A stretch of DNA of 61,911 nucleotides from Ignavibacteria bacterium CG1_02_37_35 (GCA_001871325.1 MNVA01000238.1:1-61911), one strand, 5' to 3'. Counted from the stretch's first letter, positions 2,905 through 20,040 are shown. Notes: generated by a model from the letters alone, not told the origin. Made by a program: numbers and translations.

Positions 2905-3048
2905 CGAGTTGTATTTAATGTTAAATATTTCAAGTTCAAAATACTTAAACGCAAAGGAATTGTCAAGAAAAAAAAGTTAGGTATCTTTGATCAATTAAAT
3001 TATTCGGATAACATTTATAGATTATTATCATAACAAGAAAGATCCTCT

Positions 3049-8391: not shown

Positions 8392-9882
8392 ATGAAAAAG
8401 TTTTTTCCGGTTTTACTGCTGATTTTATGGATCGCAAATTGCTCAAAAGCGCAGACGCAATTTCAAAATTTTCTAAACTACGCAAACACCATTAGCGATT
8501 CACTTCAAAAAAATGCGGTGCTCGATAGCTTTATTACTCATCACAAAGCAATTCGTATTCCTATTGCCGAAGAACATTTTGCTATATTTCTTTACAAAGG
8601 AAATGCTTCAACCGTCTCGGTTGCGGGCGATTTTAATGGATGGCAGCCTAATTTATCGTTAATCAGAGTATCAAAATCAAATTTCTTTTATACGGCAAAA
8701 TATTTTGAATTGAATGCCCGGCTTGATTACAAATTGGTGTTGAACAACAACAACTGGTATCTTGATCCATTAAATCCCAACATTTGTATCGGGGGTTTCG
8801 GACCGAACTCCGAATTAGCAATGCCCGAATATGTTCAGCCGGAGGAAATAAAATTTGATCCAGCAATCCCACACGGAAAGATTGAGCTGAAAACAATTAG
8901 CAGTACAAATGTTAACGCAACGTATCAAATAAAAATTTATTTGCCCACGGGTTATAATCCCGCGGAAAACAAAGTTTACCCCACCGTTTATTTTCAAGAC
9001 GGATTTGAATACATTGATCTTGCCGGGGCAGTAAACGTGCTTGATAATTTAATTTCTGCGAAGAAAATTGAAAATGTTATTGCCGTTTTTGTTCGACCGA
9101 ACAACCGTAATGAAGAATATGCGCTTTCAAAGAGGGCGCAATACCGGCTCTTTTTTGTAAATGAACTTGTCCCGTTTATTGATTCGATTTATAAAACCGA
9201 ACAATCGCCAAAAAGAAGATTAGTGCTTGGCGATTCCTACGGTGGAAATATTTCAGCTTTAATTTGTTATTATCATCCCGAAATAGTTGGCAACTGCGGT
9301 CTACATTCCGGTGCATTTCAAGAAAACAATTATGAGGCGTACAATCTTTTTATTTCTTCACCGAAAAAAGAAGTTAAATTTTCGATGGTGTGGGGAACTT
9401 ATGAACCGCTTTATCCGAACATGCGTCATTTTAGAGATTCACTAGAAGCAAAAAAGTACGATTACAATTGGTCGGAACTACCGGAAGGACATAGCTGGGG
9501 TTTGTGGCGCGCTAACATTGATTTTATGCTCGAATATATTTTTCCTTTTGTACCAACAGGAATTAATGAAGGATCAAATATTCCACCTGATAAATTTGAA
9601 TTGTACCAGAATTATCCGAATCCGTTTAATCCTGAAACAGTTATAGGCTATCAGTTATCAGTAAACAGTAAAGTCAGCTTAAAAGTTTTTGATATTCTCG
9701 GGAAAGAAGTTCAGACATTGGTCAATGAAGAAAAACCAGCCGGCGCTTACAAAGTTGAATTTAATCCCGGACAAAGATCAACCAACAACAAACTGACTAG
9801 TGGCATTTATTTGTATCAGTTAAGAGCGGGTTCTGTGGAAGGTGGATTTGTCCAAACAAAAAAAATGGTAGTGTTGCGATAA
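8392..9882 (+). CDS. Secreted alpha/beta-hydrolase esterase (enterochelin-esterase-like, N-terminal E-set/CBM48-like) with T9SS C-terminal sorting domain
   Basis: GDSYGG nucleophile elbow; C-terminal YQNYPNPFNPETVIGYQL ... SGIYLYQL tail typical of T9SS cargo. Confidence 0.75.
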   Translation: MKKFFPVLLLILWIANCSKAQTQFQNFLNYANTISDSLQKNAVLDSFITHHKAIRIPIAEEHFAIFLYKGNASTVSVAGDFNGWQPNLSLIRVSKSNFFYTAKYFELNARLDYKLVLNNNNWYLDPLNPNICIGGFGPNSELAMPEYVQPEEIKFDPAIPHGKIELKTISSTNVNATYQIKIYLPTGYNPAENKVYPTVYFQDGFEYIDLAGAVNVLDNLISAKKIENVIAVFVRPNNRNEEYALSKRAQYRLFFVNELVPFIDSIYKTEQSPKRRLVLGDSYGGNISALICYYHPEIVGNCGLHSGAFQENNYEAYNLFISSPKKEVKFSMVWGTYEPLYPNMRHFRDSLEAKKYDYNWSELPEGHSWGLWRANIDFMLEYIFPFVPTGINEGSNIPPDKFELYQNYPNPFNPETVIGYQLSVNSKVSLKVFDILGKEVQTLVNEEKPAGAYKVEFNPGQRSTNNKLTSGIYLYQLRAGSVEGGFVQTKKMVVLR

Positions 9883-14054: not shown

Positions 14055-14462
14055 TTGAAGATAAAAGTAAATAAAGCAGGGATATTTAACAGACTTGATA
14101 CCATCATTGTACGCGTTAAAAATTTGGAAGCATCAAAAAACTGGTACATCGATAATTTGAGTTTCTTCCCCGTTTACAGTGACGATGAAAGCAAAATTAC
14201 GGTGTTTGATTTGGCGGGAACAACGACGTTAACCCTTTGGCAGTTTGATGAAAACGATGCTACAAATAAGTCAAACCACGGGAACACGTATGCTGTATTT
14301 AATTGTGATAATGCAGAACAGGTCTTTAAATCATTAAAGAAAAAAGGAGTTGCCGTTAATAACTTTACTGCTTCGGGTGATGTCTCTCTTTTTAATTTTT
14401 ACGACCCAGATGGAAACAAATTTGAAGTTATAGAAATAAACGAGAAAGACGGCGAAGAATGA
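14055..14462 (+). CDS. VOC (glyoxalase/bleomycin-resistance) family protein
   Basis: 135 aa. LDTIIVRVKNLEASKNWY and the DPDGNKFEV end are typical of VOC. TTG start preceded by AAGGAAA. Confidence 0.65.
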   Translation: MKIKVNKAGIFNRLDTIIVRVKNLEASKNWYIDNLSFFPVYSDDESKITVFDLAGTTTLTLWQFDENDATNKSNHGNTYAVFNCDNAEQVFKSLKKKGVAVNNFTASGDVSLFNFYDPDGNKFEVIEINEKDGEE

Positions 14463-15100
14463 TCTCAAACTACAAACATATCATCTGGGATTGGAACGGC
14501 ACGCTTTTTAACGATGTCGAACTGTCTGTTTCTATCGTTAACAATCTCCTGATTAAAAGGAATCTGATTCCCCTTTCAGTTGAAAAGTATAAAGAAATTT
14601 TCACCTTTCCTGTGAAAGATTATTATGTAACCGCGGGATTTGATTTTGAAAAAGAATCTTTTGAAATTGTGGGCAAAGAATGGATGGATGAATACGAACG
14701 AAGAAAACATGGATGTGGTTTATCAAAATCAGCATTCCAACTCCTTGAAAAGATTTCTTCTTTAAAAATTGAACAATCAATACTTTCCGCTTATTCGCAA
14801 CATACATTAGTTGAAGTTGTTGAACATTTCGGTTTAACAAAATATTTTTCTCATCTTTTAGGGTTAGACAATATTTACGCTTCAAGTAAAGTGAAACTTG
14901 GTAAAGAATTGATGAAAAAATTGGCATTAAATAATGGCGAGGCGCTCTTAATTGGCGATACGATTCACGATTTTAATGTTGCCGCAGAAATTGGCGCTGA
15001 TTGTATTTTGGTCGCAAGCGGGCATCAAAGCCGTAAAAATCTTGAGCGATGCGGAGTTCCGGTTTTCGATTCGATAAAAGAACTTTTAGAGATAATTTAA
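14459..15100 (+). CDS. HAD-superfamily hydrolase (phosphoglycolate-phosphatase-like)
   Basis: Motif I region IIWDWNGTLFND, motif IV GDTIHD; ATGA overlap with the upstream gene. Confidence 0.75.
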   Translation: MISNYKHIIWDWNGTLFNDVELSVSIVNNLLIKRNLIPLSVEKYKEIFTFPVKDYYVTAGFDFEKESFEIVGKEWMDEYERRKHGCGLSKSAFQLLEKISSLKIEQSILSAYSQHTLVEVVEHFGLTKYFSHLLGLDNIYASSKVKLGKELMKKLALNNGEALLIGDTIHDFNVAAEIGADCILVASGHQSRKNLERCGVPVFDSIKELLEII

Positions 15101-15133
15101 CGGTTTCCCATTGAGCTTTTTGCAAATATTGAT

Positions 15134-16966
15134 TTATCGTTCTTTCATTGTTACTCTATTGCGAACCGCGGTTGAAAGAAGTTGATATAAACTTGTCAAA
15201 ATTGATTCATTGATTCCAAACGCTTTTAAAACTGTCTTGTCAAAATTAATTCTGTCTGGTTGCTTAACTTCTTCAAAAATTGGTTTAATTTTTCTTGTCT
15301 TCAATGGTTGAAATGATTTTTTTATTTCTTTTATTGAATTTACTGTGAGCAAAGCTGGATTTAAAACAAGAAGTGTTTTGATGTAATTTGCGTTCAGGTC
15401 TAACGCACCCAAGTTTCGTGATGTACCCCGCATTTCTACAGTTAGAAAAGTTACAATCGAATTAAGTAATGCTGCAATAAGTTCAACATCGCTTTTTGAT
15501 TTTACCGTAATAGCTATAAGTCGTTGGTCAATGGTAAATGGTTTTTCGGAAAAACTGAAGAAGAATCTTTCAAATGGATTGATTGCGGTCACGATGTTTG
15601 CTTGTTTGGGTCGCAACGAATACCAGAATGGTTTGTGTCCTTTACATGTTTCTTGAATTGTCTTTGACCCATTTTTATTTTTTTTGTTCTCAAATCTTTG
15701 AATCCATTTGTAAGCACCAGGGTAATTTGTTTTCAATTTGCCTAACGGTAAACTGCAAACGAAAAGATAATTTTTGTAGTTGCCACCAAATCCCAAAGCT
15801 TTCAATTCGGTTGGGCTTTTCACATATGGAATGAGGAATATATTTTCTATTCCACTTGTCAGAACTTCCTTTGATGAAACAACAAACATCTCATTCCAAC
15901 CAGTTCTTTCGCCTCTGAAAGCAGTAAAAATATTTGGATAAAGCTGTATTAATTGTTGATCGAACTTTTCTAATAAATCGGCTGAAATGAAAAAGGTATC
16001 CCAATTTTTTTGTTCAACTAAAGAATTTTCAAGTTGTTCTTTTGAAACAATACTGACACTTATTGAGTTGTCCGTTTTGTGATATAAATTATGGAAAGTG
16101 GTGTCATTCTTCCAACCCGAATGTTTTGGATTATTGCAATTATCGATGTCAGTATAGAAATCCTCAACCTCTTTCAGTTGTATTAAAATATTATCCTGGT
16201 TAAAAGTTTCAGCAAGTTTGAAGTTTATTGTTACAAACTTTGTTGACTCTGTGCTCTGCCCATGTTGTAGAACGGAAAATATTGTTGAAACTTTTGAATC
16301 ACTAAACCAATGCTCCGCATTGCTTCGAATTATATATTTGATGTGGAAATTGTCGAGCATAAATTTCTTGAATTGAAAACCGTATTCTTTTCCAAGCCAA
16401 GCATTTGAAGTAATTGCCGAAAGGAATCCGTCTTTTTTTAGAAAACGGATGGAATTGTAAATGCAGTAAGTAAAATAATCTGACCGTTCATTTATTTTAA
16501 ATGAGCGATCTTTTAAAAATGCTTTCTGCTTTGCTTCAAACTTTTCCCTGAAAAAAGTTGTCAAAACATCATTTGGAATATCCTCTTGCTGTATGAATGG
16601 GAAGTTACTTGCAATTGCATTAAATAAAGGTATTTGTTGTTGTATCTGGTTTTTGTAGTTATTTGAATCAGGAAACACAACTTTCATATTAGGTTCAAGA
16701 TTGAAATAGTCATCCCTTGTTACTCTCGGGAAATTGTCCGTTTGATTTTTTATTTTTTGTTTGTAGAGGTTGATTACCGAAAGGATTGCAGGAAAATGAG
16801 AAATATCGTTGCCCCAAATTTGATTTAATAAGTTAACATGGTCTTTGTTTCCGTGATAATTCAAAATCTGGTAGAATGAATTTAAGAATGTTCCCGTTCC
16901 CGATGTCGGGTCAAGAACAAAATCGTTTGCAGTTTGTATCACGGGGAATGAGACAAGATTTGCCAA
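15134..16966 (-). CDS. Gamma-class N6-adenine DNA methyltransferase (Eco57I/TaqI-like) with ~400-aa C-terminal specificity-like region; 5' end compromised
   Basis: Motif I VLDPTSGTGTFL and motif IV NFPF are present. The only start available is TTG 16966, which excludes motif X (see finding at 16964-17026). Confidence 0.8.
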   Translation of the reverse strand: MANLVSFPVIQTANDFVLDPTSGTGTFLNSFYQILNYHGNKDHVNLLNQIWGNDISHFPAILSVINLYKQKIKNQTDNFPRVTRDDYFNLEPNMKVVFPDSNNYKNQIQQQIPLFNAIASNFPFIQQEDIPNDVLTTFFREKFEAKQKAFLKDRSFKINERSDYFTYCIYNSIRFLKKDGFLSAITSNAWLGKEYGFQFKKFMLDNFHIKYIIRSNAEHWFSDSKVSTIFSVLQHGQSTESTKFVTINFKLAETFNQDNILIQLKEVEDFYTDIDNCNNPKHSGWKNDTTFHNLYHKTDNSISVSIVSKEQLENSLVEQKNWDTFFISADLLEKFDQQLIQLYPNIFTAFRGERTGWNEMFVVSSKEVLTSGIENIFLIPYVKSPTELKALGFGGNYKNYLFVCSLPLGKLKTNYPGAYKWIQRFENKKNKNGSKTIQETCKGHKPFWYSLRPKQANIVTAINPFERFFFSFSEKPFTIDQRLIAITVKSKSDVELIAALLNSIVTFLTVEMRGTSRNLGALDLNANYIKTLLVLNPALLTVNSIKEIKKSFQPLKTRKIKPIFEEVKQPDRINFDKTVLKAFGINESILTSLYQLLSTAVRNRVTMKER

Positions 16967-17023
16967 AGTTGAAGGCGTGAAGTAATGTCCAAACTCCTGT
17001 TTTTCTTCTTTAGGAACAAGTTT

Positions 17024-17026
17024 TCA
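17024..17026 (-). other. In-frame TGA separating the zinc-ribbon ORF from the methylase ORF
   Basis: Hand translation of the minus strand gives ...NRDDT-TGA-KLVPKEEKQEFGHYFTPST-(TTG)ANLVSF..., in the same reading frame throughout. Confidence 0.9.
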
Positions 17027-17239
17027 AGTATCGTCCCGATTTACATCAACTAAGTAGTCATCCGTTTTACATTCTGGACAACCTTTAAAAAAATATTCCC
17101 TAACATCCCAAAATAATGAAAGTGAATTATCATTTCTTTCATCAGTTATTTCTTCATAGAAAAAATTATCGCACCAATTGCATCTCACAATTGCCTCGTC
17201 TTTCGCGACTTTTAAAATATCTCTTATGCCGTAACTCAT
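17024..17239 (-). CDS. 71-aa zinc-ribbon ORF (possibly the detached N-terminus of the downstream methylase)
   Basis: CNWC ... CPEC pair; ATGA overlap with the upstream Mrr-like gene. Confidence 0.6.
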   Translation of the reverse strand: MSYGIRDILKVAKDEAIVRCNWCDNFFYEEITDERNDNSLSLFWDVREYFFKGCPECKTDDYLVDVNRDDT

Positions 17240-18225
17240 TTTTTTCTTAATCTTTCTAACGGATGAGTTTTTCCCGTTTTTGTGTCAAGGAACTTCCAAA
17301 ATTTCCAACCATTTACTGGCATGCCATTTTGAATTTTTGTTCCTGCTGCTGACGGTGATTTATACACCTCGTTTTCGAAAATAATTTTTGTTGGTGAAAA
17401 ATAAATAGCGAAGTGTTTCTGGTTTTTATAGTTAGTAAAAATTTCAATTCCTTTTCCAATACTTTCTGTCGCTTCTGGAAAATCAAAGTTCAGTTCATCT
17501 TTATCAATATCAAAAATTGTAACCTTTTCAAGAATTACCCCAAGTCCAAACTCACATAATAAATCAACAAGTTTATTTCCATTCATCATAGAAATTGGAG
17601 CCTTGTAAGGGTCATTTGCTTCTTCAGTTGCTGGTTTTGAAAAATCAGAAGTTGTAATAAATAAACCCGTTTGATGCGGTCTTAAACTTCCTCTCAACTC
17701 TGATATGTTGCTTCTTTGAACATTGTTTCTCCATCTTTTTACTTGAACACAAATACTATTCCTAATAACACCAGCAACAACCAATTCGCCTGTAACATCA
17801 ATTCCTCCATCGCCTGTTCTACCAGTTATTTGAACATTTTCAAAACCAAGGTTTCTTAAAACCTCACCACTCAATTCTTCAAACTTAGAAGGTTGCATTA
17901 CATGAAGCGCTTCAAGTAATTGCTGTTTTACCTCGTGATTTTTATTTCTGATGTCGGCAAAAATTCCTTTTGGCTCATGTTCATATAAACCATAAAGACC
18001 TTTTCCATAAGAAATAAACTTGGACTCTGTTCCTTGAGATTTTGCTTTTCTAATATCAGAGTTTATTGCAGAAGCAATATTCCCTGCAATAATTATATCA
18101 TCACTTTCTATGAGTTGTAATTCAAAAGATTTTCTTGTTAAATCGCGAAAATGAATTTGCTTTAGCTTAGGTTCTTCACTAAGAATTTTATAGGCGATTT
18201 CTAAGTAGGTTAAATTCTCTGCCAT
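17236..18225 (-). CDS. Mrr-family restriction endonuclease (Mrr_N wHTH + Mrr catalytic core) with extra C-terminal NGW-x-FW module
   Basis: N-terminus LTYLEIAYKIL...FISYGKGLYGLYE resembles Mrr_N. Core is GRTGDGGIDVTGE...VQVKRW (D...QxK as in E. coli Mrr). C-terminus is YKSPSAAGTKIQNGMPVNGWKFWKF. Confidence 0.85.
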   Translation of the reverse strand: MAENLTYLEIAYKILSEEPKLKQIHFRDLTRKSFELQLIESDDIIIAGNIASAINSDIRKAKSQGTESKFISYGKGLYGLYEHEPKGIFADIRNKNHEVKQQLLEALHVMQPSKFEELSGEVLRNLGFENVQITGRTGDGGIDVTGELVVAGVIRNSICVQVKRWRNNVQRSNISELRGSLRPHQTGLFITTSDFSKPATEEANDPYKAPISMMNGNKLVDLLCEFGLGVILEKVTIFDIDKDELNFDFPEATESIGKGIEIFTNYKNQKHFAIYFSPTKIIFENEVYKSPSAAGTKIQNGMPVNGWKFWKFLDTKTGKTHPLERLRKK

Positions 18226-18228
18226 TGA

Positions 18229-19032
18229 TTACGCTGCCTTTAAATAATTAATATTTTTATAGTCAATAGGATGAACTTTATGAAGCAGAACATTTTCGTT
18301 TTTTTCGATACCAACAAACTGTCTCCCCTCCAATATTGCAGAAAGTAGAAAACTTCCACTACCGCAAGCGTTGTCAAGAACAATGTCATTAGGTTTTGTA
18401 AAAGTCCTAATTAAGTATCTTCCCAACTCAATTGGCTTTTGTGTTGGATGAATTACCGCTCCTTCTGATTCCGCTGTCTTTATGTAAATATAATCATCAA
18501 TGTTTTGTTCTTCATAAAACAAGACATCGTTTGGATATCGTTGACCGTTGCTCTTGACATGTCTTGGCTTAAAGTCTCCGTAACTTCCAGTGTACTGATC
18601 TTTGCGTATTCCTTTATCATAAGGTACACCAGTTGTCATTTGAGGATTATATGTTGGTTGTTTTTTATAGAATATGCAAATATCCTCATGTTTGCGGAGT
18701 GGTTGAATTTTTGCATTCAAAAAATTAGTTGGTTTGGATTTAATCCAAACGATTTTATATTTAAAAAGTTTTTCGTTACTCAATATAAGTTTTGCAGTAA
18801 ATAGTCCTTGAGCCGTCAAAGCAATACAACCATTGTCTTTGATAACTCTTTCATATTGTTCCCAGAGTTTTAGCAGGTCGATTACAGAGTCCCATTTGTT
18901 TCGTGTCGTACCGTATGGTAAATCACTTAAAATCATATCAATTGATTTATCTGGAAAGTCTTTCATTACTTCAAGACAATCACCCTGTACGACTTTGTTC
19001 AAATATTTATCTATTGCCATTTCTTTTTTCAT
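18229..19032 (-). CDS. Beta-class N4/N6 DNA methyltransferase
   Basis: Motif IV SDLPYG near the N-terminus, HPTQKP, then motif I VLDNACGSGS near the C-terminus (circularly permuted beta order). Confidence 0.85.
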   Translation of the reverse strand: MKKEMAIDKYLNKVVQGDCLEVMKDFPDKSIDMILSDLPYGTTRNKWDSVIDLLKLWEQYERVIKDNGCIALTAQGLFTAKLILSNEKLFKYKIVWIKSKPTNFLNAKIQPLRKHEDICIFYKKQPTYNPQMTTGVPYDKGIRKDQYTGSYGDFKPRHVKSNGQRYPNDVLFYEEQNIDDYIYIKTAESEGAVIHPTQKPIELGRYLIRTFTKPNDIVLDNACGSGSFLLSAILEGRQFVGIEKNENVLLHKVHPIDYKNINYLKAA

Positions 19033-19458: not shown

Positions 19459-20040
19459 ATGAAAAAGCTTTCTTTGTTCGCGGCTTTGGGAATTTTGTTC
19501 TGTTCTATCACTTCTTTTGCACAAGAGATGAATCAAGAAATGACTCCGGAAATGAAAATGTGGATGGAGTATATGACACCAGGCGAGATGCATAAAATGC
19601 TTGAGAAAAGTGCTGGTCAGTGGAAAGCAAAAATTACGATGTGGATGGCTCCGAATACACCGCCAACGATTGCCGAAGGAAACTCGGTAAACGAAATGAT
19701 CATGGGAGGAAGATATCTTCAATCAAAACATTTAAGCAATTTTTCCGGCATGCCGATGGAAGGCATCGGACTTGAAGCGTATGATAATGCGAAAAAAACT
19801 TTCTACAGCACGTGGATAGATAATATGGGAACCGGAATTATGTTTCTGCAAGGCAAGTTCGATCCTGCCGCCAAAACGATTACTTACACAGGAACCTCTG
19901 TTGACCCGATGACTGGAAAGGATATGCAAGTCCGCGAGACGATGAAATATCTCGACGATAATCATAGTGAAATGGAAATGTTCACGATCGATGGTGATAA
20001 CGAGTTCAAAAGCATGCACATCGCTTTTGAAAGAAAATAA
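19459..20040 (+). CDS. DUF1579-like secreted protein
   Basis: Signal peptide and 193 aa. Family assignment is by recollection of the MGGRYL...EGIG..YD pattern. Confidence 0.6.
   Translation: MKKLSLFAALGILFCSITSFAQEMNQEMTPEMKMWMEYMTPGEMHKMLEKSAGQWKAKITMWMAPNTPPTIAEGNSVNEMIMGGRYLQSKHLSNFSGMPMEGIGLEAYDNAKKTFYSTWIDNMGTGIMFLQGKFDPAAKTITYTGTSVDPMTGKDMQVRETMKYLDDNHSEMEMFTIDGDNEFKSMHIAFERK

Follow-up and report, generated by a model that had tools for sequence, protein, structure and literature searches.

Modification-dependent restriction enzymes of the Mrr/MspJI type (Type IV/IIM) carry an Mrr_cat domain with a PD-QxK active site (GDGGID...QVK) and an N-terminal domain of winged-helix type, and are often encoded by a single stand-alone gene. 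Eco57I-like Type IIG systems pair a restriction–methylation (RM) fusion protein with a separate methylase. The prrC anticodon nuclease gene is nested in the EcoprrI Type Ic restriction–modification (R-M) operon, where the R-M genes are intact and regulate PrrC, and free-standing homing endonuclease genes, such as seg and mob of phage T4 ('intronless homing'), comprise a nuclease gene without a mobility enzyme at one conserved target. Finally, Iyer, Zhang and Aravind (PMC4738411) predicted fusions of putative readers of modified bases, RAMA or HARE-HTH, with a restriction endonuclease (REase) fold in the neighbourhood of N6-adenine (N6A) methylases, the neighbourhood that gave RAMA its name, and RAMA–nuclease fusions are listed as uncharacterised Type IV candidates (PMC11037411). 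Here, we analyse a locus of Ignavibacteria bacterium CG1_02_37_35 in which an Mrr-type nuclease gene lies between two methylase genes, within a 61,911-nucleotide (nt) stretch of DNA (GCA_001871325.1, MNVA01000238.1; hereafter the window). As the original prediction had supposed, such an arrangement is no textbook unit and corresponds to no named system. On balance, we favour the view that it is a mosaic of two unrelated defence units, in which the nuclease is autonomous and probably modification-dependent and the methylases are not its partners.

Results

The locus consists of four tightly spaced open reading frames (ORFs) at 15134–19032, all on the minus strand, in the order M1, NUC, ZnR and M2. 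M1 (18229–19032) encodes a predicted beta-class N6A/N4-cytosine DNA methyltransferase of 267 amino acids (aa), NUC (17236–18225) a 329-aa protein that is the conserved core of a cassette and ZnR (17024–17239) a 71-aa four-cysteine zinc ribbon, the accessory gene of that cassette. M2 (15134–17023) comprises 629 open codons from 17023, or 610 aa if read from the TTG at 16966 (frame 15134–16966). The co-directional arrangement had been described correctly from the start: 3 nt separate M1 from NUC (taa-tca-ATG), an ATGA overlap joins NUC to ZnR, and M2 continues the ZnR frame with a single interruption, the TGA at 17024–17026. The motifs reported at the outset were likewise found, namely SDLPYG before VLDNACGSGS in M1, GDGGID...VQVKRW in NUC, CxxC...CxxC in ZnR and DPTSGTGTFL with NFPF in M2. 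Domain assignments by Pfam, PADLOC and NCBIfam were in agreement.

M2 matched N6_Mtase/Eco57I in Pfam, and its best PADLOC match was REase_MTase_IIG (PDLC03606, 5e-91), of which only profile positions 336–926 of 935 were covered. A search of a large protein collection retrieved 921 M2 homologues at E<=1e-10; among the best 120 of these, 105 were at least 900 aa long (most 965–974 aa), 66–82% identical to M2 and aligned with all 629 query residues. One of the intact homologues, P0123, covered the PADLOC Type IIG profile end to end (positions 8–924; 1.4e-125), and its N-terminus is PD...ExK-like by inspection (FPDVLLF...GWELKFPD). Six distinct uninterrupted loci (L074–L083) all had an M1 homologue directly upstream of, and overlapping, the 970-aa gene (6/6), the homologue being ~300 aa long, or ~420 aa when fused to a helix-turn-helix (HTH) domain. 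The ancestral unit was therefore an Eco57I-like operon of M1 and RM. These alignments show a canonical operon in which a putative beta methylase precedes an overlapping ~970-aa fusion of a predicted N-terminal PD-ExK nuclease, a linker, a gamma methylase and a specificity region, and they show M2 to match residues ~346–971 of this predicted Type IIG fusion, with the nuclease and linker (the first ~345 codons) gone. The missing ~345 N-terminal RM residues were found nowhere in the window, and descent of ZnR or NUC from them was ruled out by a lack of similarity. M2 has methylase motif I (DPTSGTGTF) and motif IV (NFPF, the form found in its intact relatives too). Motif X (GHYFTP) follows the TGA but precedes the TTG at 16966, the first ATG, GTG or TTG of the frame. 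Two of the 10 assemblies of the organism (L069 and L073) carry a nonsense polymorphism in M2 (K92*, at 16750).

M1 matched N6_N4_Mtase in Pfam (1e-27) and MTase_II in PADLOC (1.8e-63) and is 77–84% identical to the ~300-aa M1 of the six uninterrupted operons; judged by its sequence, it is the orthologue of the separate methylase of the Type IIG operon. Homology to canonical M1 stops after ...HPIDY, leaving ~40 C-terminal residues missing, and a non-homologous tail, KNINYLKAA plus the stop codon, forms the left junction (18229–18258). The sequence ...gcagc(a/g)taa... just 5' of the NUC ATG is common to the window and L001, L009, L010, L011 and L016. Since only ~12–15 nt upstream of this ATG, including the end of the M1 tail, are shared between loci, the cassette has no promoter of its own. 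Variation of M1 within the population was synonymous in 9/9 codons with single-nucleotide polymorphisms (SNPs). In two assemblies (L070 and L071), six synonymous SNPs fall within 58 nt of M1 (window 18439–18496; also 18921), a cluster that resembles a further short tract acquired by recombination with a related M1 allele. No HTH/C-protein gene is present upstream of M1 in the window.

Motif IV of both methylases has an unusual form, NFPF in M2 (16589–16600) and DLPY in M1 (SDLPYG, 18910–18927), instead of NPPF/Y and DPPY. The same variants occur in the intact relatives examined (NFPF in P0123, P0133, P0136 and P0169; DLPY in L074–L083), and given this motif both methylases of the operon family, intact ones included, are putative adenine methylases only.

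Alignment of both flanks with the intact operons thus shows that a promoterless NUC/ZnR cassette of 1.2 kb stands where an intact operon has the 3'-terminal part of M1 and the first ~345 codons of RM. Its right boundary is the TGA that ends ZnR. This codon was unchanged in 10 independent assemblies of one organism from several groundwater samples, which rules out a sequencing error. Homology to full-length RM proteins begins at LVPKEEKQ, the codons right after the TGA, and an apparent extension further upstream in tblastn proved to be a weak gapped artefact. No second in-frame TGA junction exists in the window, and TGA is the ordinary stop of 8/42 long frames, ruling out global recoding. By these comparisons the TGA is best read as the natural stop of ZnR, which abuts codon ~346 of a truncated RM gene and is in frame by coincidence of the junction. 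The in-frame stop on which the original prediction had remarked is therefore real, and its significance is that of a junction, not of recoding.

Three domains were detected in NUC by Pfam: HARE-HTH (aa 6–82; 17980–18210) at 28.1 bits with a cut-off of 25.9; Mrr_cat (PF04471; aa 108–223; 17557–17904; 2.8e-26), with PD-QxK residues D139/D143...Q161-V-K163; and RAMA (aa 259–328; 17242–17451; E 9.6e-07), at 29.2 bits below its cut-off of 35.2. RAMA is among the precomputed Pfam matches of most NUC homologues, and residues 259–328 alone match many other loci. No Pfam match to Mrr_N was obtained at E<=0.01. Of the complete E. coli Mrr architecture initially ascribed to NUC, the catalytic core thus stands, and the supposed Mrr_N-like helix gives way to an N-terminal domain that scores as HARE-HTH. 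In PADLOC, NUC matched PDC-S02 (9e-39), an uncharacterised candidate label, and the Type IV model mREase_IV (5e-20). The only matches of a NUC profile in the PDB were the catalytic domains of MspJI (4F0P) and AspBHI (4OC8); NUC aligns to the D...QxK of MspJI, and D139, D143, Q161 and K163 are invariant in 16 homologues. An AlphaFold model built from 16 close homologues reached a mean pLDDT of 50.8, too poor for a fold search, and is of no help to the view that we favour.

NUC has 324 homologue clusters, many of them 60–88% identical over all 329 residues, from Bacteroidota, Ignavibacteria, Acidobacteria, Sulfurovum and several phyla of the Candidate Phyla Radiation (CPR). On sequenced plasmids and phages no close relative was found, only domain-level Mrr_cat matches of 32–42%. 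We surveyed 59 loci, including the window, with NUC at >=55% identity from genome and metagenome scans, and classed as solitary those with at least 1 kb of flanking sequence and no M1 or RM. Composite loci numbered 34 and solitary loci 19, with six undetermined. In composite loci, the 5' end of M1 is always kept, the remnant ending at residues 27–272, and so is the 3' end of RM, the remnant starting at residues 295–893 (295, 315, 346 in the window, 355, 360, 364, 369, 375, 378, 394, 401–405 and 421; in other loci 456, 473, 580, 712, 715, 815, 842 and 893). RM residues below 295 were found next to NUC in none of the surveyed loci. Of all composite loci, the window has suffered the least erosion in M1, and its RM remnant is among the best preserved. 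With the exception of two low-coverage assemblies, every surveyed locus has an intact NUC, and this includes loci where M1 has lost S-adenosylmethionine (AdoMet) motif I (L010, L011, L104 and L107), has an internal stop (L014) or is reduced to 27–47 residues (L013 and L016). Comparison of the loci shows what is evidently the same cassette at the same place in many operons of the family, with flanks eroded to different extents. The linkage that the original prediction had proposed to survey is thus conserved, and at 34/59 loci the adjacency is not accidental; its cause, however, is repeated replacement within an older operon and not an M-Mrr-ZnR-M unit.

Five solitary NUC copies with measurable synonymous divergence (dS) gave ratios of non-synonymous to synonymous divergence (dN/dS, omega) of 0.03–0.06 at a dS of about 1–1.4, and the NUC copies compared from composite loci gave 0.03–0.08. 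The strong constraint on solitary copies indicates that NUC functions without adjacent methylases. In two CPR genomes (L004:542-1675 and L006:6853-7989), solitary NUC begins about 10 nt after a LexA-like gene with LexA_DNA_bind and Peptidase_S24 domains plus a ~180-aa C-terminal extension.

ZnR matched no Pfam or PADLOC family. Its homologues form only 16 clusters, all of stand-alone proteins of 62–95 aa that give no functional clue, and 6/16 clusters lie on contigs matching NUC-bearing ones in size. In relatives, ZnR terminates in its own TAG, TAA or TGA, and the RM remnant then follows in varying frame. The position after NUC is occupied either by the zinc ribbon or, in other loci, by an unrelated protein of ~100–118 aa (L010:8994-9296, L014:8990-9307, L018:5544-5900, L107:3793-4101 and L111:1384-1704) with the motif …PNYGKDGRNYGELFDFLGD(Y/F)DIITASE…F(L/Y)(K/Q)WY, for which the three members tested (L010, L014 and L018) had no Pfam match; in L106 it is taken by yet another protein, of 73 aa. 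Both accessory kinds also follow NUC in L012, L018 and L020, loci that have no M1 or canonical RM, so the accessory belongs to the cassette and not to RM. Within the window, ZnR is predicted to be the accessory gene of the cassette, translationally coupled to NUC by the ATGA overlap. At L020:6656-9220, a distant NUC (60% identity) and a different 76-aa zinc-ribbon protein follow a 440-aa Eco57I/MmeI-type methylase fragment; the cassette therefore also occurs beside a different adenine-methylase gene. In another assembly of the organism of the window (L072:~6100; window 17095), a 1-nt deletion in a T-run frameshifts the zinc-ribbon gene, which could reflect misassembly or a naturally inactivated gene.

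Cassette and flanks have separate histories. The RM remnant of L001 is 97% identical to intact P0171/P0169, with a dS of 0.07 to L074 and 0.29 to L019, which has the same junction; M1 of L001 differs from M1 of L074 at a dS of 2.6. The flanks of L007 and L008 are closest to different intact operons, L082 and L083, by amino-acid identity and dN (dS is clear for L008/L083 only). Between L010 and L104, the block that begins ~70 nt ahead of the left junction and ends with the accessory gene is 97–100% identical and the M1 and RM flanks are just 72–88% identical, the RM remnant of L010 being L011-like instead (92–98%). An allele from the species of the window, L084, matches the window in its downstream flank and keeps RM from residue ~283. 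M2 of the window differs from it in 24 codons, 23 of them in codons 1–37 (16913–17023, an imported tract) and one in the remaining 592, and assembly L071 has the L084-type tract. Given these discordant histories and the tract in M2, homologous recombination brought in or exchanged the cassette, and one crossover lay about 110 nt inside M2. Three features expected of a mobile cassette were found: one insert at one gene pair of unrelated genomes, co-converted tracts, and a cassette whose history disagrees with that of its flanks. The contig of L084 begins with ~107 nt (L084:1-107) that match neither the RM gene nor the cassette nor the window and precede RM residues ~283–971; that this is the end of an insertion-sequence transposase is unsupported, as it had no Pfam match and no copy in the window.

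Copies of the Flavo-1 RNA motif (Rfam RF01705) flank the cassette in inverted orientation, exactly at both junctions, in three loci (L001:7901-7979 and 9168-9258, at 55.8 and 37.3 bits; L002:1645-1738 and 2934-3010; L021:1509-1597 and 2802-2873), and single copies occur in three others (L010:7913-7934, L011:7919-7940 and L019:~880-965). These copies are translated as the M1 tail and the head of the RM remnant, and differences between them in the central hairpin look compensatory, by eye only. This suggests that Flavo-1 is a mobile repeat resembling a miniature inverted-repeat transposable element, or an aid to cassette exchange. The window contains no Flavo-1 copy.

Across the cassette (window 15001–19000), G+C content is 0.33–0.34, compared with 0.36–0.40 in most of the window, which is consistent with horizontally acquired DNA between the gene for a HAD hydrolase (14459–15100) and a DUF1579 gene (19459–20040). 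A promoter and terminator scan of 14.9–19.6 kb was uninformative, with no enrichment over shuffled sequences.

Discussion

In the mosaic reading that we favour, truncated methylase genes would act as homology arms for the cassette. Recombination through these arms would move it between operons, and every transfer would remove the nuclease domain of the recipient and pass on the existing junction; the methylase remnants would then erode. NUC would use HARE-HTH and/or RAMA to recognise modified bases in DNA entering the cell, and its Mrr/MspJI-type PD-QxK domain to cut. It would probably be transcribed from the M1 promoter, with ZnR as a co-translated accessory. From its domains and its survival without methylases, we regard NUC with moderate confidence as an autonomous Type IV-like enzyme, and M2 of the window is probably a dispensable remnant. 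Lacking its nuclease, the fusion gene of the window leaves the operon no longer able to restrict by its own nuclease. If the methylases are not the partners of NUC, the paradox of an Mrr-type enzyme among methylases disappears.

Several facts mark the methylase genes as relics. Nonsense alleles segregate in M2 of the window, a stop interrupts M2 of L011 and another M1 of L014, the RM remnant stands in no constant frame relative to ZnR, and erosion is graded. In L001, L086, L104, L106, L110 and L007, 49–271 conserved stop-free codons lie upstream of any ATG, GTG or TTG, so their conservation is inherited and not maintained by translation.

Other facts weigh against this account. About 16 RM remnants are open for roughly 390–680 codons, and pairs of remnants with the same junction (L001/L019, L002/L086, L010/L104 and L007/L008) gave an omega of 0.05–0.08 at a dS of 0.3–1.1, uniformly low along the gene even where motif I is absent (L002/L086). 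By polarised counts, composite branches were no more relaxed than intact sister genes, and start codons lie exactly at the junction in L009, L097, L107 and L008. Open and constrained remnants would also fit a selected, non-catalytic role of the truncated protein. The modification dependence of NUC is deduced from its domains, whose reader role is disputed (PMC4738411, PMC11037411), and those who defined RAMA and HARE-HTH see such nucleases as restriction components of N6A R-M systems. Solitary loci come from contigs of metagenome-assembled genomes, which may encode a protecting methylase elsewhere. We took the dN/dS of remnants as decisive for neither side in the question of function, since recombination with intact operons confounds it and stretches without a start codon are equally conserved. 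Frequent moves into fresh operons fit the facts on both sides, whereas a selected role fits only those that speak for function, and we therefore prefer to see the remnants as relics. Of the three readings first offered for the locus, that of a decaying system comes closest: M2 is a 5'-truncated Type IIG remnant and nonsense alleles segregate. A Type IIS-like system of two methylases that recruited an Mrr-fold nuclease is weakened by the constraint on NUC in 19 loci without methylases and where both are largely deleted, and a deliberate combination of self-methylation with methyl-directed cleavage found no support.

The most serious alternative, which we nevertheless hold to be unlikely, is a swap of nuclease modules. 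Truncated M2 would serve as the DNA-recognition subunit, NUC (possibly through ZnR) as the cleavage subunit and M1 as the protecting methylase of a split system akin to Type IIG or Type III. The replaced segment is exactly the nuclease and linker, of similar size; most remnants start at residues 295–421, where the methylase domain begins; and the open frames, the omega of about 0.05–0.1 even without motif I, the unrelaxed composite branches and the start codons at several junctions all suit it. A subunit of this kind is hard to reconcile, however, with a NUC that is nearly invariant beside specificity regions of remnants that differ widely (47–97% identity), with near-identical cassettes beside flanks diverged by dS >1, and with 19 loci in which NUC stands alone under strong constraint. 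At least eight loci retain just the last 36–390 RM residues. The ZnR/M2 frame relation is variable, extended conserved stretches have no start codon at all, the population of the window and L011 carry nonsense alleles, and the accessory genes are found beside solitary NUC as well (L012, L018 and L020).

Slightly more doubtful still is a selfish or competitive element: a cassette specialised on one Type IIG operon family, with the truncated methylase genes as targeting arms, that knocks into related operons, deletes the resident nuclease and so swaps a system that writes N6-methyladenine (m6A) for a nuclease that reads modified DNA. Like free-standing homing genes, NUC sits at one conserved target locus, with short co-converted tracts and discordant cassette and flank phylogenies. 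Unlike theirs, its cleavage of the cassette-free allele is hypothetical, and its spread could be ordinary homologous recombination after DNA uptake.

A classical Type II pair, in which NUC is methylation-sensitive, M1 is its cognate methylase, HARE-HTH and RAMA check methylation and M2 is irrelevant, seems to us improbable. It can call on M1 remnants that end a few nucleotides from NUC in about 30 loci, on literature that places RAMA and HARE-HTH nucleases in N6A-modifying R-M systems and on the purely synonymous M1 SNPs in the population of the window. Against it, the regular partner of M1 is the 970-aa RM protein, many loci with intact NUC have M1 cut in or before the AdoMet motif or almost deleted, 19 loci have no M1, and the methylase is lost before the nuclease, the opposite of what a toxic R-M pair tolerates. 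Readthrough of the TGA (as selenocysteine, tryptophan or by suppression) to give a 701-aa ZnR–methylase fusion is scarcely credible: it can draw on the common frame of ZnR and M2, on a motif X that no start codon precedes and on the fixation of the TGA in the population, but full-length RM homology breaks exactly at this codon, which is a normal stop elsewhere in the window, the two frames differ in L019, L008 and L009, relatives end ZnR with their own TAG, TAA or TGA, no such fusion occurs in the best 120 of the 921 M2 homologues, and the 702-aa P0121 is a different allele without ZnR.

Automated defence annotation would label this region as two methylases plus a restriction enzyme, and the mosaic is a warning in that respect. 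In Bacteroidota, Ignavibacteria and Acidobacteria, a compact promoterless cassette has repeatedly replaced the nuclease part of one conserved R-M operon family, with recombination tracts open to direct view, and in Patescibacteria (CPR) it occurs on its own; this bears on how defence genes move without transposases. It also bears on the death of R-M operons (is restriction lost first and are methylases lost later, as addiction logic predicts?) and on the 'guilt by association' behind the m6A-reader roles of RAMA and HARE-HTH. At 329 aa, NUC is an experimentally tractable candidate for the reading of modified DNA by these domains. Should NUC attack DNA marked by the operon that it replaces, this would amount to a methylation-directed drive between defence systems, and if the cassette is a selfish element, part of the association of RAMA and HARE-HTH with adenine methylases would be conflict and not partnership.

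Comparison with known systems

NUC shares the Mrr_cat PD-QxK core, the winged-helix-type N-terminal domain and the often solitary gene of Mrr/MspJI-type enzymes. It differs from them at the N-terminus, where HARE-HTH stands in place of Mrr_N or an SRA-like reader, and further in a RAMA domain added at the C-terminus and in the small accessory gene coupled to NUC; its dependence on substrate modification is a prediction. M1 and M2 are orthologous to the genes of Eco57I-like Type IIG systems, in the same order and orientation, except that in the window the fusion gene lacks nuclease, linker and start codon and M1 its C-terminus. With the RAMA/HARE-HTH-nuclease fusions of Iyer, Zhang and Aravind (PMC4738411), NUC has in common the logic of a putative reader joined to a REase fold and the same N6A-methylase neighbourhood; here, by contrast, insertion into and truncation of an older R-M operon explain that neighbourhood, with no evident partnership. 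As with prrC in EcoprrI, a second defence nuclease lies inside an R-M operon and is probably co-transcribed with it, but here the R-M genes on either side of the insert are truncated. That this cassette repeatedly takes the place of the nuclease part in one operon family, carried there by recombination, appears undescribed in the literature searched, as does the idea that the methylase neighbourhood of such RAMA/HARE-HTH nucleases can be a mark of invasion and not of partnership. The components themselves are familiar: the nuclease is of the Mrr/MspJI type, with predicted reader domains, and the operon is an Eco57I-like Type IIG one.

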